47,854 bases of DNA from a virus (taxonomy: Duplodnaviria > Caudoviricetes): positions 1-47,854 of the IMG/VR virus record IMGVR_UViG_3300033076_000881; one strand, given 5' to 3'. Under the pieces are notes generated by a model that was not told the origin of the DNA, did not search any database, and worked only from the letters and a program-made list of their open reading frames with translations. Positions 2,689 to 39,666 of the stretch are shown piece by piece. The translations under genes were made by a program, and so were the position numbers. The stretch's first letter is position 1; each line of letters begins with the position of its first letter.

Positions 2689-3633
2689 GTGGCGGCGCCT
2701 ATCCTTCCGACGCAGGCGGCAGGACGCGCTGGCATCAACCAGCCCGGCCGGCCGGCCGCGCGCAGCAACGGTCCTTCGGCGGCAATCCGCGGGCTGATGG
2801 CGCTCTATTCGCCGCTCGCGCCGCGCCTGGCCGCGACCCGCACCAACGGCGGCACGTCACTGACCGACATTGAGAACCTGGCGCCGTTCGACGGGCCAAG
2901 CGGCAACAACCGCCGGTTCTGGATTGGCAGTAACTCTGGTGCTGGCAACGCGGTCAACACCCTCTCCGACATCTACGGGCCGTATTGGGAGATCGGGTCA
3001 ACCAATGTCCGGGCTCGGCTGCTGAACGGGCAGTCCGCGCTGATGCCGTGGGCGCCAGCTGGCGGCTACATGGCTGGCGCCCTCGGTGCGGTCGTCATGC
3101 CGACCTCCACACCGAGCGGCGCCGGGTGCGTGATCTGCTTCTCGGGCGACACGGCGGGCAGCAACGGCAATTTCGAGCTCGGCATCACCACGTCTGGCGG
3201 CACGCGAGCCTACGGCAACATCTACACAGGCACGACGACTGCAAGCCTAACCAGCCCGTCTAACCTGACGAACGGCAACCCGCACGCGATCATCTTCACC
3301 ACCCGCGCGAACAACGACCACGAGCTTGTCGTGCGGGATTTGGTCACTGGCGTCACATCAAGCACGACCAGCACGACCAACGCAGGCACCACGGCCAACA
3401 CGCCGCCTTACTACCAGATGTTCTTTCGCACGGGTGGTGGCGATTTGAACTTGCTGGCGAATGCGCGCGTGTACCAGACCATGTTTTGGTCCGGCGGCAA
3501 GACGCAGGCCGAGATGTACGAGATCGTCCGCGCGCCGCTGTCCATCGTCGCCCCAGCCGCCTTTCCGATGCCGCTCTCGATGGCTCTCGCTTCGTCGGCG
3601 ATCGGCATCTACACCCCGGCGATCATATCATGA
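2689..3633 (+). CDS. Putative receptor-binding protein, concanavalin A/LamG-like
   Basis: 314 aa, Gly/Thr/Asn-rich beta pattern (LTNGNPHAIIFT; FWSGGKTQAEMYEI resembles a LamG C-terminus). Ends in an ATGA overlap. Confidence 0.5.
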   Translation: MAAPILPTQAAGRAGINQPGRPAARSNGPSAAIRGLMALYSPLAPRLAATRTNGGTSLTDIENLAPFDGPSGNNRRFWIGSNSGAGNAVNTLSDIYGPYWEIGSTNVRARLLNGQSALMPWAPAGGYMAGALGAVVMPTSTPSGAGCVICFSGDTAGSNGNFELGITTSGGTRAYGNIYTGTTTASLTSPSNLTNGNPHAIIFTTRANNDHELVVRDLVTGVTSSTTSTTNAGTTANTPPYYQMFFRTGGGDLNLLANARVYQTMFWSGGKTQAEMYEIVRAPLSIVAPAAFPMPLSMALASSAIGIYTPAIIS

Positions 3634-4421
3634 CCGCAGCCAGCCACACTGACATCGCCAATCGGGCGTTGATCGCGGTGGCCGCTCGCGCCACCATCAC
3701 CGACTTCGAACTCGAGAACAGCCCCGAGGCGAAACTGATGCGTGCGCTGTTCGAGCCGACGCGCGACGCGCTCCTGCGCGCGGCCAACTGGAACTTCTCC
3801 ACCAAGACGGCGTACCTGTCTCTGCTACGTTCGGCGCCCGGCACTCCCGAGAACCCTGACAACTCGTCCACGGTCTGGGATCCCGACACGATGCCGCCGC
3901 CGCCCTGGCTGTACGAGTACCTGTACCCGTCCGACTGCATCAGGATGCGCTACATTCCGGCGGGCATCTGGGCCGGCAACACGGCCGCGCAGATTTTCCC
4001 CTACGGGTCGTACACCCCGAACATGCCGGGGCCAAACAACGCCGTCCGCTTCGAGGTGCGCACCAGCACCGACAGCAATGGCGATCAGGCCAACACGATC
4101 GTCACCAACGCCGACAGGGCGCTCGCCGTGTACACCAAGCGCGTCGAGAACTCGGCGCTCTGGGATCCTTCTTTCCAGGAAGCGATGGTGTTCTCGCTGG
4201 CCGTGCGGGTCTGCCTGCAGGTGAATGGCAGCAGTGAGATGCTGGCGCAGGTGAAGGCCAACGCCAAGTCGCTGGTCGAAGCGGCCCGCGCCAACGACGG
4301 CAACGAGGGGTTGTCGAAGCTGGACCACACGCCGGACTGGATCAGGGCTAGGGGGCCGGGTGCTGTGCCGATGTCGGCGCCGTTCATCCTGCCCTGGCTC
4401 GATCCGTTCTTCCTCGTCTGA
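3630..4421 (+). CDS. Tail adaptor / tail tubular protein A-like
   Basis: ATG 3630 overlaps the upstream stop. DIANRAL, RDALLRAANWNF, YEYLYPSDCIR and WDPSFQEA motifs; precedes the nozzle gene. Confidence 0.8.
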   Translation: MTAASHTDIANRALIAVAARATITDFELENSPEAKLMRALFEPTRDALLRAANWNFSTKTAYLSLLRSAPGTPENPDNSSTVWDPDTMPPPPWLYEYLYPSDCIRMRYIPAGIWAGNTAAQIFPYGSYTPNMPGPNNAVRFEVRTSTDSNGDQANTIVTNADRALAVYTKRVENSALWDPSFQEAMVFSLAVRVCLQVNGSSEMLAQVKANAKSLVEAARANDGNEGLSKLDHTPDWIRARGPGAVPMSAPFILPWLDPFFLV

Positions 4422-4428
4422 GGGTTCC

Positions 4429-7400
4429 ATGCCTGTTCTCGACCTGATCAAGACGAGTTTCGCCGCCGGGGAACTCGCCGAGGGTCTGGCGGGCCGCGTC
4501 GATCTCGCCAAGTACGCTGTCGGCGCGTCCACGATGCGCAACTTCTACGTCGATGCCCGCGGCGGCGCATCGACGCGGCCAGGGCTGGCGCACGTCGGCC
4601 GCTGCCGCATCGTCACCGACTACCCGGCGCCGCGCCTGATCCCCTTCGTGTTCTCGTCAGACCAGGCGTATGTGCTGGAACTGAACGGGTCGAAGATGCG
4701 GGTGATCGAGGAAGGCGCGTACGTCACCACAGCCGTCACCAATCCGATCACCGCCGTCACCACCGGCGCCACCACTGTCATCACCAGCAACGCACACGGC
4801 CTGGCAGTCGGCGACTTTGTGGTGATCACTGGTGTGGTTGGCTGCCTGCGCACGAATGGGATCAGCGGCCTGAATGGTCGCACCTTCTACGTCGCTGCGG
4901 TCACGACCAACACCTTCACTGTCGAGGATTACGGCCCGACCGGCGGCGCGGACTACGTGGCTGTCGTCAGCACGACGTGGACCGCCTGGACCTCTGGCGG
5001 CACGGTGCGCAAGATTTACGAGATCAGCACACCGTGGGCCGGCACCGACCTGTTCACGCTGAACTATGCGCAGCAGGCTGACATTCTGACCGTCACCAGC
5101 ACCAACTATCCGGTGTACGAGATCCGCCGGTCGAGTTCGACGAGTTGGACTATCGCGCAGGTGTCGTTCGGCAGCACCGTGGCTGCGCCTACCGGACTTG
5201 GCGTCATCCCGGCCTTCAACAACCCAGCGGTGCAGCAATACCAGTTCTCCTATTGCGTGACCGCGGTGGACGACAGCGGGCGCGAGAGCACGCCATCCGA
5301 GGTGGTGAGCTGCATCAACTCTGCGCTGAACCAGAGCGCCACGCCGAATATCTACAACCTGCTGCAGTGGCCGGCGGTGTCTGGCGCCTTCAAGTACCGC
5401 ATCTACAAGGCCAACCCGCTCACCTCGGATCAGGCGAACAGTGACCCCAAGGTGTTCGGTCTGGTCGGACAGTCCTACTCCAACCAGTTCCAGGATCTGA
5501 ACTACGCCGCTGAGTTCGACCAAGGGCCGCCTTCGACGCGCAACCCGTTCCTTGATGGCGCCCTGGCTTCGGCGACCATCACCGCGGGGGGTAGTGGTTA
5601 TGTCAGCCCGTACGGCGTGATCAGCGGCACGGGTTCGGGCGCCTCGATCTCGCTTGGGTCCGACCTGTCGGCATCGGCGTCGCCCTACGGCGAGATCACG
5701 GTGGCGAACATCGTGGCCGGCGGCACGGGCTTCACCGGCACACCAACCCTGGCGGTGTTCGATGGTGCGCCTCTCGGCAGCGGCCTGACGCTGGCGTTCT
5801 CCGGTTCCTGGGTGGCCAATCCGCTCGGCACCGGCTTCGTGCCTGCGCCGGGCAGCATCACCATCTCGTCTGGCGGCTTCAACTACCACCACGGCACATA
5901 CACCAACTTCATCACGGCCACCGCTGGCAATCAGGTTGGCACGAACGTGTTGCAGATCGACGTGACGCAGGTGGTCGGCGGCGTCATCACGGCGATCTCC
6001 TGGGCCAACACCGACATCACGCCGACCGCGACGACTGGCCTGTCCAGCACCGGCGCGGCCGACACGATTGCCTTCGCCTACGGCACCGACACCGCCGGCG
6101 CCGGCGGCGCGACCATCACCCTGGCCATTGGCGGCACGACCAACCCGGCTTGTGTCGGCTTCCTCGAGCAGCGCCGCGTGTTCGCCGGCAGCCTGTCCAA
6201 CCCATCGTCGTTCAATATGTCAACGGTCGGGCAGCTTTCGAACTTCGACGTGCACGATCCAATCCAGGACGACGACGCGATCAGCGCCACGATCTACACC
6301 AACGAGGTGAACCTGATCCACTCGTTGGTGTCGGTGAACAACGGGCTCATGGCGCTCACCAGCGGTGGCGCGTACTTGATCAAGTCGTCCGGCGACGGCG
6401 CCGTGACGCCGAGCACTGTCAAGGCGACGAGCCAGGCGTTCACCGGGGCGCAGGTGCATCTTCCGCCGCTGCGGGTGGGCGACCAGATCCTCTATGCGCA
6501 GAGCCGCGGTTCGGCTGTCCGCACGCTGGAATACGACGTGTACAGCAACAGCTTCACCGGCAAGGACGTGTCGGTGCTGTCGTCACACCTCCTGCGCAAC
6601 CGCCGCATCGTGCAGTGGGCTTGGGCAGAAGAACCCTACAAGCTGGTCTGGGCTGTCCGTGATGACGGCGTGCTGCTCTCCTGCACCTTCATGAAGGAGC
6701 AGGAGGTGTACGGCTGGGCTCGGCACGACACGATGGGCCTGTTCGTCTCTGTCGCCTCCGTCCCCGAGGGGAAGGAGAACTCCGTGTACTTCGTGGTGCA
6801 GCGGTATCGGGAAGGCTACCCGATGCAGTACCACGTCGAGCGCATGGCCAGCCGCACGCTGGGCGCCAACCCTGCCCTGGCGATCAAGGCCAGCAGCGAG
6901 GAAGCGTACTTCGTGGATGGTGGCGCGCAGTACCCGTTGACCTATCCGGCTTCGGCGCTGTCCGGCGGCGAGGCTGACGGGCTGGGCGAGATTTACGACA
7001 TCGACATCATCACCGGCGGCTCGGGCTACACGGCCCCGACGTGCTACGTGCGCGACCCGACCGGCACGGGCGCCGAGGTGACCCTGACGCTGACCGCCGA
7101 TGTGATCACCGGGTTCACGATCGTCGATCCTGGCTCTGGCTACACGGCGCCTGAGATCGTCATCGAGGACGCCACCGGCGCCGGCGCGCGGCTGCAGGCC
7201 ACCTACGTCAACCGCTTCTTGCTGAACAGCGAGGCGGGCAGCCTGTTTTCGTCGGGCGACGTTGGCAAGATTGTCAGGGTGCGCGGGGGCCGCGGCACGG
7301 TGCTGTCGGCGCCTGCTGGCGACCAGATCGAGGTGGACTTCGACGTGCTGCCCGCCGGGCTGCAGAACCTTCCCGGCATCGTGCTGCCCCGTGTGCCTGC

Positions 7401-22285: not shown

Positions 22286-24071
22286 AGCGCGGTCCATCCC
22301 ACCCAGCGGCAGCGAGCGGGCAGCCCGGCAGCCACGCAGGGTTCGTTGACATAATCGCTGCGAGCTCGTCACCCGACCCGTGCCAGGCTTCGCTCTCGGC
22401 CAGCACTTCGTCGTGGACGTGCATGACGATCGGATAGCCGGCGGCCTCGGCGCGGAACATCCCGTCAACCAGCACATCCCGCGCAGTGCCCTGGACGATG
22501 TGGTTGAACTGCATCCCGCCATACAGCGTGAAGCTGCCCCACCGCTTCTTCTCACCGTCGTACCCGTCGTAGTCCACACGGCGGCGCTCCCGCATGTGCT
22601 CGACGCCGCCTTGCGCGATCAGCGCCGCCCACTCTTCGGGAAGGTGTTGGTTGTGCAGGACGCGGCTGCCGTCCGGCATGTCGATCCACCGCTCGATCGC
22701 CAGGACGACGCGAGGCTTGCAGTAGGACAGCACCCGGCCGCTGGGCAGGCGGCACCACAGGAAGCCGCGCGCAGACACGTAGGCGACGTGGCCGTTCAGC
22801 GTGTGGACGATCTGGCCGGGGTTGGCGGTCGCTTCGATCGCTGCGTCCTGCAAGTCCCACCAGCCCTGAACGATGCCAGCGTGCTGCTCGCGCCACCCCT
22901 GCACGATCGTCTTGACCGCAGCCCACTGATCCAGCGGCAAGCCGTGCTTGTCGGGCGCCTTGGCGTACTTGTTGCACCACTCGGCGAACCGCTCGAACGA
23001 CACGGTGCGGATGATGGGCACCAGATCGCCCGGGTTCAGCCCGTAGTTCTTGCCCATCGAGATGAAGCTGCCGACGCTGCCCTGGTAGCCGAGCGCCAAC
23101 TCCATCACCTTGCCGATCTGGCGCTTCGCCTTCTGCCGCTTCACCTCGGCTGGATCCTCACCGAAGGCGCGGCCGTAGGCGACGCAGTATAGGTCGGCAC
23201 CAAGCCCGGCGTCGTACGCACCGAAGGCATCCAGCTTCCATTGCTCGCCACCAAACCACGCAGCGAGCCGGCCTTCGATGTTCGACAGGTCGCAGCCCTT
23301 CAGCGTGTGGCCGGGCTCGGCGATGATCATGTTGCGCAGCGTCTTGGCCAGCGGCGCCATGGCCGAGCCGAACAACATGCGCAGCATGTCGTGCGCGCCT
23401 TCAACGTCGTGGCGCAGCAGCACGTCGGTGGCCAGGGAGATGTCAGACCCGTCGCGCTCGGGGTCCACGCGGTACAGGTTGTGCGGCTGCCACAGGCGAC
23501 CGGCCCAGCGGCCCGACGACGCACCGTGGTACTGGAACAGGCCGCGCGCCCGATCATCTCGGCACATCGTGTGCAGCATCGCCGTGTACTTGGCGGTGGA
23601 GGTGCGGCCGGCGTCAGCGCGCAGCGTGATCGCCTGGCGCACCACGTTCGGGGCGTCGCTGGCCACGTCGAGATCGCCAAGCACTTCATCGGCTTCATCC
23701 ATCACGCCGGCTTGCTTGTCCTTGGCGATGCTGTCGCACTTAACGCCGAGGCTTCTGATCCACTCGACGAGCGCCTTGGTCTGGCTGCACTTCTTCACGG
23801 CGCCGCCGGTGACCTTCGCCATCTCGATGTCGAGCATCGCCTTGGCGTGGTCCCGCACCTTGATCGCGTGTTCGATGGCCGCGCGGTCCAGCTTCACGCC
23901 GCGGTCGTTGATCGTCTGATCGAGGATCCACACCCGCCGCTCGCTCTCGGAAAGCGGAGGCGCGAGCCCGTCGAGTTCTGTCTCAGTGACGACATCTTGA
24001 TCACAGTAGTCGCCAAGGCGTGCTACAAGGAGAGGGTCGTCCCACCAGACGTATTCGACAGACGTGCTCAT
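22275..24071 (-). CDS. Family A DNA polymerase, C-terminal piece (ExoIII plus polymerase domain)
   Basis: YCDQDV, YHGASSGRWAG, motif A CDLSNIEGR, motif B RQIGKVMELALGY, motif C HVHDE. Confidence 0.92.
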   Translation of the reverse strand: MSTSVEYVWWDDPLLVARLGDYCDQDVVTETELDGLAPPLSESERRVWILDQTINDRGVKLDRAAIEHAIKVRDHAKAMLDIEMAKVTGGAVKKCSQTKALVEWIRSLGVKCDSIAKDKQAGVMDEADEVLGDLDVASDAPNVVRQAITLRADAGRTSTAKYTAMLHTMCRDDRARGLFQYHGASSGRWAGRLWQPHNLYRVDPERDGSDISLATDVLLRHDVEGAHDMLRMLFGSAMAPLAKTLRNMIIAEPGHTLKGCDLSNIEGRLAAWFGGEQWKLDAFGAYDAGLGADLYCVAYGRAFGEDPAEVKRQKAKRQIGKVMELALGYQGSVGSFISMGKNYGLNPGDLVPIIRTVSFERFAEWCNKYAKAPDKHGLPLDQWAAVKTIVQGWREQHAGIVQGWWDLQDAAIEATANPGQIVHTLNGHVAYVSARGFLWCRLPSGRVLSYCKPRVVLAIERWIDMPDGSRVLHNQHLPEEWAALIAQGGVEHMRERRRVDYDGYDGEKKRWGSFTLYGGMQFNHIVQGTARDVLVDGMFRAEAAGYPIVMHVHDEVLAESEAWHGSGDELAAIMSTNPAWLPGCPLAAAGWDGPRYAK

Positions 24072-25306
24072 CCTAGCAACTCCGCCAGATCGGGGGCGGC
24101 GAACCGAGTGCGCAACTCGGCGAGGTAGGCATGATCTCGCTCGACCAGCACAGCAGAGAAGCCTTCGGCCTGCGCCGCCACGCCGGTTGTGCCGCTGCCG
24201 GCGAATGGGTCCAGTACCGTGCCGCCCGGTGGTGTGATCATGCGAACAAGCCAGCGCATCAGCGCGACAGGCTTGACGGTCGGGTGTTTCGACCCGGCAC
24301 GATCTTCCTTGCCCGCCTTGGCCGAATAGAAAAACCTGGACGCCGTGCCGCTGTCACCCCGTGGCGTCATCGGGTCGTCGGCCCGATCCATCTTCCCGTA
24401 CACCTTGCGAGTGCGCGCACTGTCCGTGTTGCTGCTCGCCGTGCCGAGTTGGCCAGGTCGCTCGCCGAACGCCGCGAAGGCGGCCTCCACTTCGTCGCTG
24501 CCGTCGTGGACGACGTTGGCAGGCCAGCGGCCGACATACGTCTTAGGCTCGCCTTGGGTGCCGCCGGGACGCAAGAGGCCCGGCGCGGCACCCAAGGCGT
24601 TTCCGTTGCAGGGCGCCAGAGATGTGAAAGCAGCGACACGCACCTCGTCACCTATCCGGCACTTGTCAATGTTCAGCGCCCCTGTGCCGTGCGCCAGGAC
24701 GTTCTGTGCCACCGTGCCGGCCAGGGGCTTCCGCGCCAGGATGATCGGCTCCCAGGCCGGCTTCAGCGCCGTGCCCCAGCCTTCCCAGGCGACGGCTTCG
24801 GGCAGTGTCACGGTGACCTTGCCGCCGGACCATCCGCTGTCCGCCTTGTCCGCCATCGTGCGGCGCGACGACTCCTGCCATTGCGCACCGGGGGCGGATG
24901 CCACACCAGTTTCCGCCATCAACGCCGGATCGCGCGCCGAGAAGCGCGAACCCCCGGTGCGGAGATGCGACTCTATGGCTCGCGCCGCGTCATGCGACTT
25001 CGGGAACCCGGTCCCGTAGAGCCACATAAGCGTGTCGCGGATCTCGAAGCCGGCATCCTCGATGGCGACGGCCATGCGGTGGAAGGTGCGCGTGCCGCCG
25101 AAGGCCACCAGATGGCCGCCCGGCGGCAGCAGGTCGAAGCACCGACGCCAGGTCGCCACGTCGAACGCGATGCCCGTGCCATCCCACTCCTTGCCCATGA
25201 AGCCGAGTTCGTACGGCGGGTCAGTGACGATGGACTGAAAAACGCAACCAGCGTCGCGCCAGCCAGCCATGACTTCCCGACAGTCGCCGCCGTAGATGTT
25301 GATCAC
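24068..25306 (-). CDS. DNA amino-methyltransferase (N6-A/N4-C, beta class)
   Basis: TDPPY near the N-terminus; HPTVKP and LDPFAGSGTT near the C-terminus. Confidence 0.92.
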   Translation of the reverse strand: MINIYGGDCREVMAGWRDAGCVFQSIVTDPPYELGFMGKEWDGTGIAFDVATWRRCFDLLPPGGHLVAFGGTRTFHRMAVAIEDAGFEIRDTLMWLYGTGFPKSHDAARAIESHLRTGGSRFSARDPALMAETGVASAPGAQWQESSRRTMADKADSGWSGGKVTVTLPEAVAWEGWGTALKPAWEPIILARKPLAGTVAQNVLAHGTGALNIDKCRIGDEVRVAAFTSLAPCNGNALGAAPGLLRPGGTQGEPKTYVGRWPANVVHDGSDEVEAAFAAFGERPGQLGTASSNTDSARTRKVYGKMDRADDPMTPRGDSGTASRFFYSAKAGKEDRAGSKHPTVKPVALMRWLVRMITPPGGTVLDPFAGSGTTGVAAQAEGFSAVLVERDHAYLAELRTRFAAPDLAELLG

Positions 25307-30604: not shown

Positions 30605-31168
30605 CTAGGCGTGCTTCTCCGCCCACAACGCCATCATCGCAGCCTCGGCACGATCAGGCCGCGGCACGACCTTGCCGGCCTGCGTCTCGTGCGGCCGATA
30701 GAACAGGTGTGCGTGCTGCGGAAAGAGATCCTGGGCTCGTGCCATCGCCCGAGCCTTGTCCTTTGGGGCCTTCATGTCTCGCTTCCAGGTGCCAGGGGCG
30801 ACCTGGATGACGGACTTGCCCATCATCTCGACCAACATGACAAGGCATCCGTATCCGAAGCCGAAGCTGAACATGCCGGACTGGCCGGGCATCTGCCCGA
30901 CCTTCTCGGCGACGATCTTGTCCACGCTGTGCAGATCGAACAGGCTGGTGACGAGCGTGCGGAGCCCGGCCCGGTCGATCATGCGGCGAGGCTTGCCGCT
31001 CACCTCGCCCATGATGACCGGCATGTCGTACACAGCCAGCGATGCCGGGATATCCGGGGCGGCCCACACGCCAGGGCGGGACGGTGTGCCAGACCGCCCC
31101 GTGACGCCCGGGGTCCACAACGCAATGGCGCCGTCGAGCCCCGGGTCAATGCCGATGTAGGTCGGCAT
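30605..31168 (-). CDS. RuvC-like Holliday junction resolvase
   Basis: YIGIDPGLDGA, AEKV, MFSFG.GYG, P.TWK, DRAEAA. Confidence 0.85.
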   Translation of the reverse strand: MPTYIGIDPGLDGAIALWTPGVTGRSGTPSRPGVWAAPDIPASLAVYDMPVIMGEVSGKPRRMIDRAGLRTLVTSLFDLHSVDKIVAEKVGQMPGQSGMFSFGFGYGCLVMLVEMMGKSVIQVAPGTWKRDMKAPKDKARAMARAQDLFPQHAHLFYRPHETQAGKVVPRPDRAEAAMMALWAEKHA

Positions 31169-32040
31169 CAGCGGCCGAGCTTGGCGAACGCCTGGGCCGC
31201 TTCCCGAAGCTGGGCTGCCCTGAAATCGCACTCCGTCATGTAGAGCCTGGCCTGCTCGGGCGAGATGCGCAGCCGGCCGACCTTGCCGTTGTGCCAGTTC
31301 GACAGCGTACCGCGACTGACGCCCAGCCGGCGGGAGAACTCGGCATCGTTCAGCGCCAGGGCGCGGGCGAAGGTGACGACAGCCTGCTGCGCGCCTTCGG
31401 GGCCTGGCGGGCTAGGTTCGGCCGCACTCCGGACAGGAGCGGCCGGGCTCGACGGAGGGGCCGCCGCAGTCTCGGCAGACGTAGCGGGCAAAGGGGGCGC
31501 GGGCGGCACCGGCACAGGCGGGGGCGGCGGGGGAGGCACCAGGACGACCGGCTCCACCTCGTCCACGATCTCGTCCGGGATCGCAGCGTCGGCGAAGTCC
31601 GTCTCGCTGCGCGCCTCGGCCACGGCGGGCGCGATGGCAGCGATGTCGTCGGCGACGATGCCGACCTTGGCCAGCCACTTGCCGCGGTTGACGGGCAGCG
31701 GGGCCTTGTAGGCGTCCCTGGCGGCCTTGGCGATCGCGTAGCCGCTGGCGCCTTCGTACACCATCGGGGCGAGTGCCGCGCCCATGCCGGCGTGCAGATC
31801 GGGCAGCGCATCCACCAGCGTGGCCAGATCGACCGGGTCGCCCATCATGTCGGCGAAGTCCCTGATCTCGGCGAACTTGGCGTCGATGGCCGCGCCGAGT
31901 TGAGTGGTGTGATGATCGAGCACGGCGCGGACCAGCAGCGCCTTCGGATCCTCACCTTCCACCATGATGCTCTCGGCTTCACGGATGACGGCGCGCTTGG
32001 CCGCATCGTCGAGCGTGCCGGGATCGAACTTGAGTTCCAT
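31168..32040 (-). CDS. Protein with Pro-rich linker and C-terminal XRE-type HTH
   Basis: NDAEFSRRLGVSRGTLSNWHNGK; start taken at MELKFDPG. Confidence 0.7.
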   Translation of the reverse strand: MELKFDPGTLDDAAKRAVIREAESIMVEGEDPKALLVRAVLDHHTTQLGAAIDAKFAEIRDFADMMGDPVDLATLVDALPDLHAGMGAALAPMVYEGASGYAIAKAARDAYKAPLPVNRGKWLAKVGIVADDIAAIAPAVAEARSETDFADAAIPDEIVDEVEPVVLVPPPPPPPVPVPPAPPLPATSAETAAAPPSSPAAPVRSAAEPSPPGPEGAQQAVVTFARALALNDAEFSRRLGVSRGTLSNWHNGKVGRLRISPEQARLYMTECDFRAAQLREAAQAFAKLGR

Positions 32041-32057
32041 GCGTTGGGGGCCTTTCA

Positions 32058-32099
32058 GGTAACAAGTTAACCATACAACGTGCACAGAAAGCGGGTCAA
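32058..32099 (-). promoter_or_regulatory. Sigma70-like promoter overlapping 15-bp operator-like copy 2
   Basis: Minus strand TTGACC-N18-TATGGT running into GGTTAACTTGTTACC. Confidence 0.55.
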
Positions 32100-32389
32100 G
32101 GGTATCCGATGACATTCCGTGCGCGCTGAACCATCGGCGACACCGGCGGCCTTGGGGTGTGTTGTCCATGCCGCAATGCGAGTTCGACGACCGCAGCTTG
32201 CATGGCTTCAACCAGCATGGGGGCCAGCCCGTTCGCGGCGGCCGTGTCGATCAGACCGGCCAGGCGATCGATCGTGGCGAAGGGGTGGGGTGTGTCTCGA
32301 GGGCAGGGCGACGCGTCGCCGTAATCCCAGACAAGGCCGCACGTCATGCAGCGCACGTCGCCGGATACAGTTCGCACAGCGTCACACAT
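32096..32389 (-). CDS. Hypothetical protein with Cys cluster
   Basis: GAGG RBS; C..CMTCG..W...C. Confidence 0.6.
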   Translation of the reverse strand: MCDAVRTVSGDVRCMTCGLVWDYGDASPCPRDTPHPFATIDRLAGLIDTAAANGLAPMLVEAMQAAVVELALRHGQHTPRPPVSPMVQRARNVIGYP

Positions 32390-33057: not shown

Positions 33058-33258
33058 ATGGATGACAAAATGCTCCGCGAAAACCTTTTCGTCAGGGTGC
33101 CGACAGGCACCAAAGCCAGGATCGACGCGGCCAGGGGCCACGAGCCGCAGGGGGCCTGGCTGCGCCGGCTGATCCTGGCCGCGCTGTCCGACAATCGCGT
33201 GGAAAAACCGAAACGCGCACTTGCCAAACCGCTAGCACGACAGAGAGGCACACGATGA
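33058..33258 (+). CDS. Ribbon-helix-helix (Arc/CopG-like) regulator
   Basis: LFVRVP.GTKARIDAA......AWLRRLILAAL beta-alpha-alpha pattern. Confidence 0.7.
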   Translation: MDDKMLRENLFVRVPTGTKARIDAARGHEPQGAWLRRLILAALSDNRVEKPKRALAKPLARQRGTR

Positions 33259-33656
33259 CAGACAAGCCCATGTGCCCGCATTGCGCCGACTACGTCGGCA
33301 AGTGTCCCTATTGCCACTCGACGCAGCCCTTGCCGCCCCCGCATGTGGACGACATCAACGATGCCGTGTGGCGCGGTATTGAGCGGGACATGCGGGCTGG
33401 GCTGTGCTGGGCGTGCGGGGTGAGGTGGGGAAGCGGGCACATCAAGGGCTGCCCAGAGGGCGACGACATGGCGGTGGAGCTCGACCGCGCCGCCGCAGAG
33501 ATCGACCGCGCCGCCGCAGAGATCGACCGCGCCGCCGCAGAGATCGAGCGGCTTCGCGGCTGGCTCGCCTACATCGAGGGCAACCACAGCGAGCACCGCG
33601 AGGCCGCGGCCCGTGCGTTGGCGGGTGAGACGCTGCCGAAGGGGTACGAGCCATGA
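33255..33656 (+). CDS. Hypothetical Zn-finger plus coiled-coil protein
   Basis: CPHC, CPYC, CWAC..H...C; (I/L)DRAAAE x3. Confidence 0.65.
   Translation: MTDKPMCPHCADYVGKCPYCHSTQPLPPPHVDDINDAVWRGIERDMRAGLCWACGVRWGSGHIKGCPEGDDMAVELDRAAAEIDRAAAEIDRAAAEIERLRGWLAYIEGNHSEHREAAARALAGETLPKGYEP
33481..33547 (+). repeat. Perfect 21-bp tandem repeat, about 3.2 copies
   Basis: TCGACCGCGCCGCCGCAGAGA x3 plus TCGA. Confidence 0.95.
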
Positions 33657-34173: not shown

Positions 34174-34461
34174 TCACTCGCCGCGCGCTTTGGCGATGGC
34201 GGCGCGGATCTCCTCCGCATAATCGTCAGCACGAACCTTGCGCGGGTTGCCGGAAAGCGTGCAGACCATGTTGCACAACTCGGCGATGCGCTGATTGGCG
34301 ACATCGAGCGCCGCCAGCATGTCGGGCGCGGCATTGGCGCGACGCACCAGCTCACGTAGATCCTGGCCCGATGTCTCGTTGGTCGGGTTGTCCTGCGCGA
34401 TCATTCGGCCATCGGCCTTGACAACGCCCTGACCGTCGAAGCTGTAGCGGATGCGGTTCAT
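34174..34461 (-). CDS. Cassette-array gene 10, hypothetical
   Basis: ATG 4 nt after the 13-nt leader; ANAAPDMLAAL...AAIAKARGE phage motif. Confidence 0.8.
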   Translation of the reverse strand: MNRIRYSFDGQGVVKADGRMIAQDNPTNETSGQDLRELVRRANAAPDMLAALDVANQRIAELCNMVCTLSGNPRKVRADDYAEEIRAAIAKARGE

Positions 34462-34498
34462 GGTCGGATCTCCTATCCGGTTCGGTGCTAGCGGAATG

Positions 34499-34551
34499 CT
34501 GGCATCCGTTCGAGGATCACAGTCGCCCATGATCCTCTAGGCGGGTGTCAG
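34499..34551 (-). ncRNA. Intergenic structured repeat H1
   Basis: CTGACACCCG-CCTA-GAGGATCATGG-GCGA-CTGTGATCCTC-GAA-CGGATGCCAG. Confidence 0.7.
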
Positions 34552-34805
34552 TCGCCGACTTGGCGAACGTAGATCCACACGTTTCGCCCCGCCGTTGTGC
34601 CGCGGTCGCCAGGCACGGGGCGGCCAATGAACGCCTCGAATGTGTGGCTGCGGCCGTTGGGCGTCCAACAATCCAGGCGCATGGTGCGACAGAAGCCGGT
34701 GCGACCGTATTCGCGCGCTGCCTGTCGGTTGGCGAATATTTCGGCTGCTTCACGTGCGCTATCGGCGCGCACAGGCCGGAACCCGTCAGAAGCGAAAAGC
34801 GTCAT
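34548..34805 (-). CDS. Cassette-array gene 9, hypothetical
   Basis: Leader-preceded ATG; stop codon lies inside H1. Confidence 0.8.
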   Translation of the reverse strand: MTLFASDGFRPVRADSAREAAEIFANRQAAREYGRTGFCRTMRLDCWTPNGRSHTFEAFIGRPVPGDRGTTAGRNVWIYVRQVGD

Positions 34806-34830
34806 GGTCGGATCTCCTATCCGTTCGAGG

Positions 34831-34938
34831 TTAGCGGCTGGCCAGGTAGGCGACACCAGCCGAGAGGATCGCAAGGCCGGCGCCTACGGCCAGGGCCGCC
34901 CATGCGAGATGAGCGATTGCATCCTGCACGAAAATCAT
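34831..34938 (-). CDS. Cassette-array gene 8: 35-aa single-TM peptide, not in the ORF track
   Basis: MIFVQDAIAHLAWAALAVGAGLAILSAGVAYLASR; GGGGA RBS and TGACCCATG junction; fills the gap between neighbours. Confidence 0.7.
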   Translation of the reverse strand: MIFVQDAIAHLAWAALAVGAGLAILSAGVAYLASR

Positions 34939-34941
34939 GGG

Positions 34942-35364
34942 TCAGTCCCCCAGGCAGAAATAGATGCGACCATCGGCGCTGGGATAGATATTCGACGGGA
35001 TCTCGCCGCGGCCCATGCGGGGTTCCGCTTCCTCCCAAAATGCCGCCGCATCTAAGGGTTCCGACATGTCCACACCATCCATGCCCATCTCGCCCATGTC
35101 GCAAGCGATGTACTGAAAGAACAGGGCGTTGCACTCGTCAGGCGACAATGCGTCAATCTCGGCATCGTCCCAAGCGCCAAAGCCGCGCATGTAGTCGCGC
35201 AAGGCGTCTAGCTTCTCGGGGGTGTCCAGAAGCACGGTGCGCTTGGCTTCCTCGAGGCTGGCGGCCCATGTGCGCGGCCCTGCATCCGGCCCATGCGTCG
35301 CCACGCTGCCGCTCAAGGGCCAGGTGTCAACGTTGAGCACAAAGTCTGTGATGTCGATTTCCAT
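34942..35364 (-). CDS. Cassette-array gene 7, acidic hypothetical protein
   Basis: Leader-preceded ATG; Asp/Glu-rich, 140 aa. Confidence 0.8.
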   Translation of the reverse strand: MEIDITDFVLNVDTWPLSGSVATHGPDAGPRTWAASLEEAKRTVLLDTPEKLDALRDYMRGFGAWDDAEIDALSPDECNALFFQYIACDMGEMGMDGVDMSEPLDAAAFWEEAEPRMGRGEIPSNIYPSADGRIYFCLGD

Positions 35365-35389
35365 TGTCGGATCTCCTATCCGGGTTGCA

Positions 35390-35448
35390 CTGGTAGTCAT
35401 TCGGCGAGCACAAGCCAGGTTGCCCATGCTCGCCTAGGTGACTGTCAG
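35390..35448 (-). ncRNA. Intergenic structured repeat H2
   Basis: CTGACAGTCA-CCTA-GGCGAGCATGGGC-AACCTG-GCTTGTGCTCGCC-GAA-TGACTACCAG. Confidence 0.7.
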
Positions 35449-35828
35449 CGATACCAGTAGGTCACGTCACCATAATCGACAGACGAATAATCCATGCGCA
35501 ACTCCCGCGCAGCCTCCTTCCAGTCTATGCACGTGCACGGCCACCGTGCATCATCCGGGATCGCGCCAATATCTTCGGCGAGCTGACGCGCATAATCCTC
35601 GAAATAGTCATCTCGAATAATCGATACCGGATACCACGCGCCCTCCCATTGGTGATCGCCGCCGTTGCCGCGGAGATCTTCCAAAAGGCTATCGAGCGTG
35701 GCGAGTTCATCCTGCAATCCGTCATCGTCCGGCCCATCAAGGAAGGTGATCTCACCGCGCAGCTCTTTAACGCGATCCGTGATGTCGCGCACGTCGATTA
35801 TGTGCGCTGTGTTGCTGATGTCTATCAT
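35445..35828 (-). CDS. Cassette-array gene 6: acidic ArdA-like antirestriction candidate
   Basis: FEDYARQLAEDIG.IP...IDWKEAARELRMDY resembles the ArdA C-terminal domain; very acidic. Confidence 0.55.
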   Translation of the reverse strand: MIDISNTAHIIDVRDITDRVKELRGEITFLDGPDDDGLQDELATLDSLLEDLRGNGGDHQWEGAWYPVSIIRDDYFEDYARQLAEDIGAIPDDARWPCTCIDWKEAARELRMDYSSVDYGDVTYWYR

Positions 35829-35860
35829 TGTCGGATCTCCTATCCGTTGTCGGTGCCGGG

Positions 35861-35913
35861 CTGGCCTCCGTTCGGCAAGCACGGTCGCCCATGCTTGCCT
35901 AGGCGGGTGTCAG
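35861..35913 (-). ncRNA. Intergenic structured repeat H3
   Basis: CTGACACCCG-CCTA-GGCAAGCATGG-GCGA-CCGTGCTTGCC-GAA-CGGAGGCCAG. Confidence 0.7.
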
Positions 35914-36143
35914 TCACTCAAACATAGCAAGGAAACCGCCGGGCCACCTATCTCAATATCGTTTGGCATGGGCCAGGGAGTGACATCCACCCATGCGTTG
36001 CAGCACCGGCACTCGGCGCGCCACACCTTGCCGCCCGACGCGAGATTGAGCTTGCGGAATGGCGCCATATCGTGCCCGCGACCCACCGCGGCCTTGCGTG
36101 CTTCACGACGCAAGCGTGTGTCCTTTGTGCGCGTTCCGGTCAT
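35910..36143 (-). CDS. Cassette-array gene 5, small Cys/His protein
   Basis: Leader-preceded ATG; GH...CRCC...C. Confidence 0.75.
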   Translation of the reverse strand: MTGTRTKDTRLRREARKAAVGRGHDMAPFRKLNLASGGKVWRAECRCCNAWVDVTPWPMPNDIEIGGPAVSLLCLSD

Positions 36144-36170
36144 GGTCGGATCTCCTATCCGTTGTGGGTG

Positions 36171-36437
36171 TCAGCGCGACGGCGCGGTGAGGAAGGCCCA
36201 GCACGCCGCGCGCTCCGCCACGTTGCGATAGACGAACCCGAGATACCGGCGCCCATGCGCGGCATCAAATATCGGCTCGATAACGAGGCTCGCGCCCCGC
36301 GCCGCGGCCTGGATCGCCTTTTGCGTGGTGGGCGCCGTGGTGTTGTCCACCGACTTGACCTTGCGGAGTTTGGCGCGGTCAAGCCAATCCAACAGGTCCG
36401 CAGGGCCAACATACTGGCCAACTCGCTCAATCGTCAT
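36171..36437 (-). CDS. Cassette-array gene 4, hypothetical
   Basis: Leader-preceded ATG; 88 aa. Confidence 0.75.
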   Translation of the reverse strand: MTIERVGQYVGPADLLDWLDRAKLRKVKSVDNTTAPTTQKAIQAAARGASLVIEPIFDAAHGRRYLGFVYRNVAERAACWAFLTAPSR

Positions 36438-36448
36438 GATCGGATCTC

Positions 36449-36661
36449 CTATCCGTTGCGCGGCACAGCTACGCCGTGCTGCGTGGTGATGGTGTCACTG
36501 CCGGGCTTGGCCCACCCATAGGCGAAGGCGCGCCCATGCTGCGCTGCAGCCCGTTCGGCCGCCCGCTTGGCTTTCTCGACGCTGACATAGGAGCGCCAAG
36601 CCGGGATGCCGGGGGCGGGGAAGCCAAAACCGACGTCCCGGACGATGTATCGCTCGCCCAT
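36449..36661 (-). CDS. Cassette-array gene 3, hypothetical
   Basis: TGACCCATG junction; its TAG stop lies inside the next 13-mer. Confidence 0.65.
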   Translation of the reverse strand: MGERYIVRDVGFGFPAPGIPAWRSYVSVEKAKRAAERAAAQHGRAFAYGWAKPGSDTITTQHGVAVPRNG

Positions 36662-36664
36662 GGG

Positions 36665-36985
36665 TCAATCCTTCACGTAGGGGATTGCGTAGAGCGTGTT
36701 CATGTAGCGGCCGCGCGCATTGCGCAGGGTGATGTAAACCGCGCCGCGCCCATGCACGTTCTGGTCACTCTCAGTGTGAGTAAACCAAAAGTTGCCGCCG
36801 CTCCGCGCCCATGCCTTGCGATAGTTGGCAGGGAGGCACGACGCGATTGCGTCACTGTCGGGCTTCACGAGATCGCGTGTCGCCTTGCAGAGATGACCGG
36901 CATACATGGCCGGGACCGACTTGACCGGTCCCTTGACCATGCCGCGCACATGGCGCGAAAGGTGTAAGGCCCAAAGCGTTTCCAT
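36665..36985 (-). CDS. Cassette-array gene 2, hypothetical
   Basis: Leader-preceded ATG; 106 aa. Confidence 0.75.
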   Translation of the reverse strand: METLWALHLSRHVRGMVKGPVKSVPAMYAGHLCKATRDLVKPDSDAIASCLPANYRKAWARSGGNFWFTHTESDQNVHGRGAVYITLRNARGRYMNTLYAIPYVKD

Positions 36986-37008
36986 CTCGGGATCTCCTAT
37001 CCGTTGAA

Positions 37009-37061
37009 CTGGTAGTCATTCGAAGCGCACAGAAGCCCATGCGCTTCTAGGTGACTGTCAG
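37009..37061 (-). ncRNA. Intergenic structured repeat H4
   Basis: CTGACAGTCA-CCTA-GAAGCGCATGG-GCTT-CTGTGCGCTTC-GAA-TGACTACCAG. Confidence 0.7.
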
Positions 37062-37327
37062 ATCACGGCGCGCGTCGAGACGCGATGCTCGGGCGGCGTG
37101 TCATCCCACCGCACCATGAGAATGGTGCAACAACCCCGCGGCACCCACCACACTTCGTCACCGAAATCCCCGGTGATGTCACCTTTGACGCCGCGAAGGC
37201 CGAACTCCGCGCGAGCCTTGCGCATCGCCGCCTTGGGGTTGTCGGCGCTTTCGACGTAGCAGCGCCGCACCCAGGAATAGTTTGCTTCGCCGCCAAAAGT
37301 GTCAGTGTATTCAGCGAAATAGGCCAT
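37058..37327 (-). CDS. Cassette-array gene 1, conserved phage hypothetical
   Basis: Leader-preceded ATG; EYTDTFGGEANYSWVRR motif. Confidence 0.8.
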   Translation of the reverse strand: MAYFAEYTDTFGGEANYSWVRRCYVESADNPKAAMRKARAEFGLRGVKGDITGDFGDEVWWVPRGCCTILMVRWDDTPPEHRVSTRAVI

Positions 37328-37427
37328 TGTCGGGATCTCCTATCCTTGCGACACGCAGACCCTACCAGACACCAGACAAAATGCACAATCTGATATCCGC
37401 CATCCTAACACACTTGTAATGTGAGCC

Positions 37428-38105
37428 CTATTCACTCGGCTTTGCGGCCTTCTCTGCCGCCTTCCTCTCACGATAGCGTTCCATGGCGGGCTTTTCGGCA
37501 TTGGCGCACAAGATGCACAAGAACCTGTAGTTTGCCGCCGTCACAGGTTCGCCCTTCTTCCATAGCTTCGCAGCTCCGGCCTTGTAGCGCGGATTGATTG
37601 GCCACCATCGCTTGACCTCGGGCCATGCGGAAACCGGGATTTCCGGGCCGTCTAGCATGGTGCGGACCTCCACTAGGCAGTCATACTCCCCGAGGCTCGC
37701 AATCTGCACCAGCGCGGCCCTGCCGTCGCTCAGGTATCCCACCGCAAAGCCTCCTACCTCATATGACGTGGCAATGCGCGGGGGCTTTCCGTCCTTCACA
37801 CGATCCAAGGGCCATAGCCTGCGCTTAGTGCGCCAAGTCTCCGGCCATGCGCCGCCGACTTTGAAGAAATCCGCAACCGGCACGTAGTCGCACGTCCACA
37901 CGTCATCCCAAGGGGCGAAGGCGACACACATCAAGCGACTGTCAGCAGTTATTCTCATCCAGGCCGCAGCCCCTGACGATGTGCGAACCCTCATGACGTG
38001 ATCGTTAGGCCAGTCACCCATTAGCAAGGCCCATTCTGCCGCTTGCTTCAAATGCTCGGCTTCTGAGCCAGCGAAATCCGTTTGGACGTCACTTGACCAT
38101 TCCAT
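37428..38105 (-). CDS. Hypothetical Trp-rich protein, lower GC (start uncertain)
   Basis: Long ORF; internal echo AWPETWRTKRRLWPLD / AWPEVKRWWPIN. Confidence 0.55.
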   Translation of the reverse strand: MEWSSDVQTDFAGSEAEHLKQAAEWALLMGDWPNDHVMRVRTSSGAAAWMRITADSRLMCVAFAPWDDVWTCDYVPVADFFKVGGAWPETWRTKRRLWPLDRVKDGKPPRIATSYEVGGFAVGYLSDGRAALVQIASLGEYDCLVEVRTMLDGPEIPVSAWPEVKRWWPINPRYKAGAAKLWKKGEPVTAANYRFLCILCANAEKPAMERYRERKAAEKAAKPSE

Positions 38106-38854
38106 GTGGCCGGTCCCCAGACTGATAGGTCTATAAGCCCTCCATCTCCAGGCGGCGGAGCCTGGGGATGGTAGGGCCTTAATAGGACTACCAGATAAAA
38201 CGATACGTGCAACTAGAAGCTTGTCGGTGGGGATGAGACTGCAAGGACTGATGGCAGTTTGCTGGTGCTCCCCTGTCACACCACAAACTGACATCAAGCC
38301 ATGCTGCACATCCTGCAAAACAAGACAGGATGTGAGCATTAACTGCATTTTGGTTTATTAGTCAGGATGTGCAGAGATTGGGCGTGCTGTATGGTCTCGT
38401 CGGGCTGAAAGGGCTATTTGCGGTATGCGCTCGACCTCGAGACGCCCTTCCTGACATTCACTCCCGTTATGTGCATCACATTCACATGCCAGGTCTGGCG
38501 CACCAATCCCCGGGCGCGGCTGCGGCGGCCCAACATGCTCAGCCTGCACCAATCCAGCGGCTCGAGCGCAACCAGCACGCGAAACCGGCGCGCGATCCAT
38601 GCATGTCGTGCATCACCGGCTCGGCTGGCCCAAGTAATATCAATAGCTTAGCGCGCTACTTTCCATAATAGATGTTATGCTGCATCGCTTGTCGGCCTTC
38701 CTGGCGGGGTTTCGGGCTGCTCGGGCGGGATGGTGCGCCCCCGCACCCCACCCCCGGTCGATCGCGGCGCGCGGGAGGGGGTGGCCCCGCCGCACCCGCC
38801 CCGCCCCTCTCCAGCCCACCTGCCCCGAACATCTAGCACTATATTTTACGCTAC

Positions 38855-38924
38855 GTCCAAGCCTTACGTTATGCCCGCCTCCATCCTACGCACCGTGTCC
38901 AAGCCTTACGTTATGCCAGCCTCC
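38855..38924. repeat. 28-bp direct repeat pair in the divergent non-coding region
   Basis: GTCCAAGCCTTACGTTATGCC(C/A)GCCTCC at 38855 and 38897. Confidence 0.9.
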
Positions 38925-39375: not shown

Positions 39376-39666
39376 ATGAACTTCGGAGAAGCTATCGCCG
39401 TGCTCAAGAGCGGCGGCCGGGTTGCCCGTGAAGGGTGGAACGGCAAGGGGATGTGGCTTGTGCTGACACCTGGCGGCACTGCGCTCGCCAGTGCCGTTCC
39501 GCGCGATTACGCAGCCCTGGCCAATATCGCCGGCGAGAGCCCAAGGCCGACGCATATCGTCATCAACTCGCACATCGACATGCGCGCGGCGGACGGCTCT
39601 CTCGTCATCGGCTGGCTCGCTAGCCAGACCGACATGCTCGCCGAAGATTGGAAGATCGTCGTCTAG
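39376..39666 (+). CDS. DUF2829-family protein (Tad2-like anti-Thoeris sponge)
   Basis: MNFGEAIAVLKSG.RVAREGWNGKGMWL ... GWLASQTDMLAEDW family signature. Confidence 0.85.
   Translation: MNFGEAIAVLKSGGRVAREGWNGKGMWLVLTPGGTALASAVPRDYAALANIAGESPRPTHIVINSHIDMRAADGSLVIGWLASQTDMLAEDWKIVV

Follow-up and report, generated by a model that had tools for sequence, protein, structure and literature searches.

What are four similar hairpins, each laid across the stop codon of a small gene, doing in a single phage operon? The hairpins, H1–H4, lie on the minus strand of IMG/VR record IMGVR_UViG_3300033076_000881, a whole phage genome of 47,854 bases (100% complete) that we refer to as the window. A first-pass annotation had described them as a four-copy stem-loop outside any named family, and had offered three guesses at their role: RNase III-type processing sites, a protein-binding motif, or recombination substrates made of single-stranded DNA (ssDNA). 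We find that H1–H4 belong to a family of hairpins that is real, undescribed and selected for structure, a conclusion the evidence supports. We lean toward the view that this family most likely works like the RNase III signals of phage T7, without passing the membership rules of the Escherichia coli enzyme.

The four hairpins share one architecture, consisting of a 10-column lower helix over the stop codon, a 4 × 3 internal loop of CCUA opposite GAA, and an upper helix of 11–13 base pairs (bp). H1 (34551-34499) and H3 (35913-35861), the latter directly upstream of an ArdA-like gene, carry a GCGA loop; H2 (35448-35390) has a 13-bp upper helix, and H4 (37061-37009) an 11-bp upper helix, the CCUA/GAA loop and a lower helix over the UGA of open reading frame (ORF) 37058-37327. 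From H1 to H4, the first base lies directly before an in-frame UGA, namely that of ORFs 34548-34805, 35445-35828, 35910-36143 and 37058-37327, and the 3′-ends lie 4–19 nucleotides (nt) before the GGATAGGAG Shine-Dalgarno (SD) element of the next gene. The lower arms are common to H1 and H3 and to H2 and H4, and a heptamer, CATGGGC, is present in the 5′ arm of all four. The outer stem had been described as switching between AGTCA/TGACT and CCG/CGG; the stem exists, but as the 10-column helix, which extends back across the stop codon and contains A·C mismatches.

A pattern scan of the window for CTA-stem-GAA returned exactly these four sites. Their folding z-scores are −3.9 (H1), −6.0 (H2), −4.5 (H3) and −5.0 (H4), and for each of them none of 200 shuffles folded as well. 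In the H1–H4 alignment 7 of 20 pairs have changed on both sides, giving a covariation score of 0.458 that none of 500 shuffles reached and that slid controls (at most 0.108) did not approach; as only four related sequences are compared, we treat this score as support and not as a p-value. No Rfam covariance model matched anywhere in the window at its gathering score, and none fell on the hairpins at expectation values (E) up to 5; a single chance match (E 1.3) lies elsewhere in the region. Literature on phage early-gene RNase III signals, phage attC arrays, RHph_N65 and SP82 yielded no description of the hairpin family, in a search that lay mostly outside the subscription literature. Thus the earlier statements that the element starts at stop codons, belongs to no named family and shows compensatory change held up.

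The covariance model built from H1–H4 gave a weak match (E 0.44) in Rhizobium phage RHph_N65, which is the best named match to the DNA polymerase of the window. Reading that region revealed two copies, N65a and N65b, both lying on gene stop codons within a small leftward operon. A model of these six sequences finds, at E 6e-9, G004, a complete relative whose genes are in the same order as those of the window and whose polymerase is 57% identical; the G004 operon carries four copies, G4a–d, all on in-frame UGA stops. Collecting homologues, as the first-pass annotation had proposed, added six copies, and the family as analysed here has ten members.

In all ten members the first base immediately precedes an in-frame UGA of a small-ORF operon, and none is followed by a U-tract, in agreement with the first description; the terminator scan reports none of H1–H4. 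Invariant in all ten are the CUGACA 5′-end, the CCAG 3′-end and an A·C opposition at column 4, where a non-pairing C faces the A of the stop codon. Above this base, columns 7–10 of the lower helix covary across the ten copies (four pairs, with 16 cells changed on both sides), which none of 500 shuffles matched. The CCUA/GAA center, which had been called invariant, is so within the window but occurs in only five of the ten members, H1–H4 and G4d; G4a–c have GAC/UUGA, GAC/UUGG or GUC/UG in its place, and in N65a and N65b the center is paired. Because half of the members have other centers, the loop is a conserved subtype and the invariant part of the family is the stem base, which weakens the original proposal that the fixed loop is the functional core. 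CCUA/GAA is nevertheless common to the window and G4d despite a diverged upper stem.

How widely the family occurs was addressed by several searches. A pattern search matched 8 of 50 related records, of which only G004 (four) and RHph_N65 (one) proved by inspection to hold hairpins. On the same number of related records, model R2 gave one partial match (E 0.005) and model R3 gave three, namely G004, RHph_N65 and one weak match (E 0.014). The CCUA/GAA pattern was absent from all 401 genomes of the class of G066, and model R3 found nothing in three bacterial genomes, with 150 candidates scored in each. The SD-element pattern had no match in the collection scan. Patterns of the CATGGGC form gave 37 matches in viral contigs and 4 in metagenome contigs, and every one of these was a chance match; patterns in the style of N65 gave one viral match, which did not fold, and 15 genome matches, none of them convincing. 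The collection patterns were too narrow, since members of the family need not have CATGGGC, and for this reason the family is probably under-sampled. Contigs X1 and X2 from sequencing runs are identical to the window across the hairpins, and X3 and X4 cover small parts only.

On balance, and with modest confidence, we favor the reading that H1–H4 are intercistronic processing signals cut by the RNase III of the host, as in T7. In this scheme a single transcript would run from about 37350 to 34170, and host RNase III would bind the helix of roughly two turns. The asymmetric loop would limit the enzyme to one nick in the 3′ strand of the central loop, near GA^A give or take 1–2 nt, which places the predicted cuts at about 34510/34509 in H1, 35401/35400 in H2, 35872/35871 in H3 and 37020/37019 in H4. 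The upper stem would stay on the upstream message as a protective 3′ hairpin, the downstream message would begin 15–30 nt before its SD element, and the anti-defense genes would thereby be released as separate, stabilized units.

The geometry of the family is consistent with this scheme. Every one of the ten copies lies between a stop codon and the next start, in genes that we infer to be co-transcribed. H1–H4 and G4a–c combine the 10-column lower helix with an upper helix of 9–13 bp, and all four window copies have at least 11 bp on one side of the central loop (the upper helix, 11–13 bp), as a two-turn substrate should. The idealized E. coli RNase III substrate has 22 bp (PMC3867540) and the minimum one 11 bp (PMC1540722), and a loop at the target restricts the enzyme to cutting a single strand, with a protective 3′ hairpin left behind (PMC3867540; PMC1540722). 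The R1.1 site of T7 has a 4/5 asymmetric loop, and the enzyme of the alphaproteobacterium Sinorhizobium meliloti makes the canonical cut in R1.1 as well as cuts at further places, and may recognize different motifs (PMC6121014). The loop sequence differs between members of our family while its geometry is kept, and on the coding strand the hairpins are capped by GCGA tetraloops in H1 and H3 and by C(UACG)G in G4a–c.

For comparison we folded the intergenic stretches of T7 from its fetched record. The R0.5 and R1 stems contain or adjoin the stops of genes 0.4 and 0.7, and all seven T7 sites examined carry a GUG on the 3′ strand at −11 to −9 from the cut, opposite CAU, CGC, CAC or UAU, counting from what we take to be the T7 cut positions. 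At R1.1 this register matches both the 28-nt product and the boxes listed in PMC1540722. Applied to our family, the GUG rule predicts a cut within the 3′ loop strand for seven of ten members, with CAU as partner in H1–H4 and CGC in G4a–c. In addition, position 2 of the distal box is a U·G pair in all four window copies, and this pair is stringently required by the E. coli enzyme (PMC1540722). The G004 copies lack CATGGGC and so give independent support for the GUG register.

A descriptor built on the CAU/GUG arrangement matched H1–H4, T7 R1 and R1.1 and two hairpins of another early operon, L058, among 26 sequences. We give it little weight because it was built from these very sites and because simulated genomes gave up to two matches (mean 0.2–0.4). 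L058 itself contains three unrelated-looking intercistronic hairpins with CAU/GUG and an internal loop (2055-2110, 3630-3690 and 4925-4980), one of them directly before its ArdA-like gene, as well as a repeated ACACATAGGAGCA start element. The intergenic gaps of L081, the terminal repeat of Caulobacter phage Ccr2, repeat a different module, in which a terminator-like hairpin and a TTGTTAA motif are joined by a second hairpin, with CAAUCC as its loop, ahead of the SD. A paper on Fri1-like phage (PMC5537680), which concerns phage-polymerase promoters, is not relevant here.

Several observations weigh against processing by RNase III. In the GUG register, position 2 of the proximal box is G-C or C-G, a binding antideterminant, in H1–H3, so that one window copy in four is acceptable, and position 4 is G-C, a catalytic antideterminant, in all four; position 1 of the distal box is never U-A in the window copies. 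The RNase III guess fits best of the original three, but the proximal-box rules are broken; these rules describe the E. coli enzyme (PMC1540722), from which that of S. meliloti differs. Shifting the register by 1–2 bases rescues some box positions and loses the U·G. The upper helix is short in G4d (5 clean pairs) and in N65a and N65b (7), and these three of the ten members are without GUG. Since CAU is also part of the operon-wide CATGGGC, its match and that of the U·G in H1–H4 may be a by-product of that motif. The ten copies come from three phages and represent perhaps four or five independent lineages; G4b and G4c are nearly identical, as are N65a and N65b. There is no such hairpin in the partial early region of relative G002 or in G005, and G001 and G003 do not extend as far as that region.

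The strand on which the structure acts bears on the same question. The first-pass annotation had argued for minus-strand RNA, and the GCGA loops of H1 and H3 stand; the argument is weaker than stated, however, because for H1 the plus-strand fold is the more stable one (−28.4 vs −24.5 kcal/mol) and H3 folds equally on both strands. The lower helix has no G·U pair on the coding strand; of its 18 unpaired cells there, 16 are A·C or C·A and become G·U on the opposite strand. That strand folds better as RNA in five of the ten members, and as DNA the non-coding strand is better by at least 1 kcal/mol in five of ten. The stop codon imposes some of the lower-helix mismatches, but not the C that faces its A. 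The strand evidence is thus mixed, and pairing alone does not settle the strand.

An alternative that we consider unlikely but take seriously is that the hairpins are uncut RNA structures, bound by a phage protein or by RNase III itself, which would shield the message or couple termination at the UGA to re-initiation at the next SD element. Specificity would then lie in the CUGACA...CCAG base and its A·C pair, which all ten members conserve, non-pairing C included. The G-C at proximal-box position 4 of all four window copies permits binding without cutting in E. coli (PMC3867540), and the retention of CCUA/GAA between the window and G4d, though the upper stem diverged, is also in its favor. 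Against this, no RNA-binding protein was identified in the window genome, the central loop varies in half of the family, and the GUG register and two-turn length are explained by RNase III cutting with no new protein. The bulged-G or sarcin-ricin motif, with part of which the loop had earlier been compared, has an AGUA strand opposite GAA, and that strand is lacking here: the 5′ strand is CCUA in five of ten members and GAC, GUC or paired in the rest.

The third original guess, recombination of ssDNA, is improbable in our judgment. It would make the hairpins attC-like sites, folded from the non-coding strand, through which early anti-defense genes are shuffled as cassettes. Integron attC sites start at stop codons, as these hairpins do, and the 16 mismatches discussed above are G·T in non-coding DNA, the strand that also folds better as DNA in half of the members. 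The near-identical pairs in G004 and RHph_N65 point to exchange or duplication, and functional attC arrays that favor the bottom strand can occur in lytic phages (PMC9892861). However, neither the RYYYAAC (R″) nor the GTTRRRY (R′) box occurs in any of the ten members, and a PF00589 search found no tyrosine integrase in the window or in G004 while the RHph_N65 control scored, although a host enzyme acting in trans is conceivable. The element follows only 4 of the 10 operon genes, comparison of the window with G004 revealed no common cassette bounded by the element, the UNCG and GNRA loops are on the coding strand, and in H2, H3 and H4 it is the coding strand that folds better as DNA. A more elaborate variant, an integron-like but IntI-free system in which the G·T-stabilized non-coding strand, with its invariant stem base, would be used by some phage or host enzyme to swap anti-defense genes in the first operon to be expressed and the oriented CATGGGC would mark the cassettes, seems to us slightly more doubtful still.

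About equally doubtful is control of transcription, by put-like antitermination or by pause sites for the host RNA polymerase along the early operon. No phage RNA polymerase was found among the 61 window ORFs scanned, so the host polymerase must transcribe the region, and the hairpins are indeed repeated along one operon on the coding strand without a U-tract. Yet put elements are promoter-proximal double hairpins, whereas these are single, follow stop codons and match nothing in Rfam, and the G004 operon has extra promoters and an intrinsic terminator inside it. In that operon two near-identical sigma-70-like promoters (TTGACC ... TAGGTA / TACCTT) can be read by eye at L187:3830-3880 and 4800-4860.

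That the hairpins are passive spacer repeats, spread by duplication or gene conversion and serving as homology patches for gene shuffling, is very improbable. The shared lower arms of H1/H3 and H2/H4 and the near-identical copies elsewhere are what such spreading would produce, but homology alone would not call for the compensatory changes seen in 7 of 20 pairs in the window and in 4 of 10 lower pairs across phages, and these changes lessen it. We give hardly any credence to a stop-codon read-through or selenocysteine-insertion (SECIS)-like signal on the UGA-C at the stem base. UGA followed by C and a hairpin is found in all ten members and reading on would fuse H3 and G4b in frame to the next gene, but in the other eight no in-frame fusion results (seven stop within 13–29 codons and one runs out of frame) and no Rfam SECIS model matches the hairpins.

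We return to processing by host RNase III as the favored reading and turn to the operon in which it would take place. Ten small ORFs, with a GC content below that of the remaining genome, are arranged on the minus strand between 34174 and 37327: 37058-37327, 36665-36985, 36449-36661, 36171-36437, 35910-36143, 35445-35828, 34942-35364, 34831-34938, 34548-34805 and 34174-34461. H1–H4 split this operon into units of 1, 4, 1, 3 and 1 genes. To judge from its layout and gene content, it would be expressed early. ORF 35445-35828 is the ArdA-like anti-restriction gene (phrog_25535, E 8e-51; phrog_2059, E 3e-5); the Pfam ArdA match, at E 0.003, is below the family cut-off. A candidate sigma-70-type promoter (TTGTGC ... 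TG-n-TAGGGT, minus strand, 37358..37387) was read by eye, and we rate it weak because the consensus scan did not report it. Directly upstream of the operon lies an orphan ORF, 37428-38348 (minus), with a counterpart at the same place in G004, L187:3059-3823. Examined as a possible recombinase or regulator, it has no family and one homologue besides that in G004; its single-sequence fold is unusable (pLDDT, the predicted local distance difference test score, of 43). Across the upstream region of the operon, 39376-39666 (plus) encodes a Tad2-like Thoeris anti-defense protein (Pfam PF11195, E 1e-24).

CATGGGC, which the first-pass annotation did not remark on, extends well beyond the hairpins. 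There are fifteen coding-strand copies between 34165 and 37041 (minus), four of them in hairpins and nine inside ORFs, where they occupy the three frames 4, 3 and 2 times; one further copy is on a start codon (36662) and one is past the last stop (34171). The 3.27 kb operon thus has 15 copies on the coding strand, against an expectation of 0.4, and one on the opposite strand, and the other 44.6 kb have 10. In G002 (G002:C1:29197-32565, L191) the count is nine to none in 3.7 kb; judged from their SD context, five of these copies carry a gene-start ATG behind a repeated AGGAAAGGACA element, and another is on the likely start of the helix-turn-helix gene of that phage. The motif is separable from the hairpins, since it is enriched in G002, which has none of them, whereas hairpin-bearing G004 has three copies and the RHph_N65 operon none.

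As a guess, CATGGGC could be a tag for early shut-off, acting on RNA like the RegB motif of T4 (PMC3014915) or on DNA like the stoperators of mycobacteriophages (PMC9283540). Both of those motifs are, like CATGGGC, short, asymmetric and in one orientation in early genes, and both occur in translation starts and coding sequence, although the CATGGGC sequence differs from theirs. Neither a RegB-like nuclease nor a cognate repressor was identified. Literature on oriented early-region motifs likewise held no description of the hairpin family, with most subscription literature outside the search. Other ArdA-like regions have strand-biased heptamers of their own: CGGTACT (15 vs 0) in L070, AAGCCCG (14 vs 1) in L062, CGCAGTA (7 vs 0) in L038 (RS-PII-1), CTGGCGC (9 vs 1) in L068 and TGGGGAG (11 vs 1) in L058. 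In L070, L062 and RS-PII-1 one copy is right behind a TTGACA hexamer and hence within a likely promoter spacer. Operator arrays of this sort may be common to early regions in general.

The genes of the operon are also marked by their translation signals. A pattern scan found eight copies of the SD element GGATAGGAGATC before genes (34467..37345, minus), with first bases at 37345, 37002, 36454, 36160, 35845, 35381, 34822 and 34478. Six of the eight fold into a 5-bp hairpin with GGAU/AUCC flanks and AGGAG in the loop, and GATAGGAG occurs nowhere else in the window genome.

The phage itself is a podophage, with epsilon15/BPP-1-like virion genes and its own DNA polymerase, primase, helicase and terminase; a helix-turn-helix protein is encoded at 31168-32169. 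GANTC is the site of CcrM, and the window contains 2 such sites where 149 are expected, RHph_N65 contains 4 where 172 are expected, and G002 and G004 avoid the site likewise; therefore the host is probably an alphaproteobacterium, as far as site avoidance can tell. GTCGAC, GCATGC and AGCGCT have no site at all in the window, and an N6/N4 methyltransferase gene is found at 24068-25306. Further repeats are a short tandem repeat (DRAAAEI, three times) at 33502-33547 inside ORF 33255-33656 and a two-copy direct repeat at 38860-38920, in the non-coding stretch before the terminase operon.

If the hairpins are indeed cut by RNase III, T7-style cutting of an early anti-defense message has arisen in an unrelated group of phages. 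The ten natural variants would then constitute a substrate set for recognition by alphaproteobacterial RNase III, to which the E. coli rules seem inapplicable. RHph_N65 is a cultured phage with two copies and hence a practical test system. CATGGGC, found in coding sequence in all three frames and in a relative without hairpins, suggests that early genes are controlled at a further level as well, and it may prove the greater surprise of the two.

Among known systems, the eight-copy SD element resembles the 13-bp start-associated sequence (SAS) of cluster K mycobacteriophages (PMC3203893), with which it has GGATAGGAG in common and shares a place just before the start codons of non-structural genes. 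An inverted repeat is upstream of four of the eight window elements and of about half of the SAS. The extended form, ESAS, consists of 17-bp near-identical inverted half-sites with a short spacer (PMC3203893), whereas the arms of the window hairpins covary, enclose a central loop and overlap the upstream stop. Compared with the 13-bp GGGATAGGAGCCC, for which two deviations are allowed, the window element has the 9-nt core and the position but other flanks, and the common SD core could have arisen by convergence. Integron attC sites (PMC9892861) are, like the hairpins, imperfect palindromes at the ends of small ORFs with a non-coding strand better paired in the lower helix, but the window hairpins lack the R boxes, the integrase and the one-per-gene placement, and have RNA tetraloops on the coding strand.

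Closer likenesses are found among processed early messages. In the Bacillus phages SP82 and SPO1, Bs-RNase III sites of early mRNA are repeated stem-loops with an internal loop between small host-takeover genes, a general description that the window hairpins share while host phylum and sequence differ. The closest is T7, whose early RNase III sites (R0.3, R0.5, R1, R1.1 and R1.3) likewise lie between cistrons, as hairpins of an early operon headed by anti-restriction cargo. They too are located at or beside UGA stops and have a lower helix, a central asymmetric loop, an upper helix of 9–11 bp, often a GNRA loop, and the 3′-strand GUG at −11 to −9 with a CAU, CGC or CAC partner. Unlike them, the window hairpins are of unrelated sequence, have a GC-rich proximal box that breaks the E. 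coli rules, and are built on the invariant CUGACA...CCAG base with its A·C opposition; they belong to a podophage with no RNA polymerase of its own and a probable alphaproteobacterial host, in which the cutting known from T7 is predicted.

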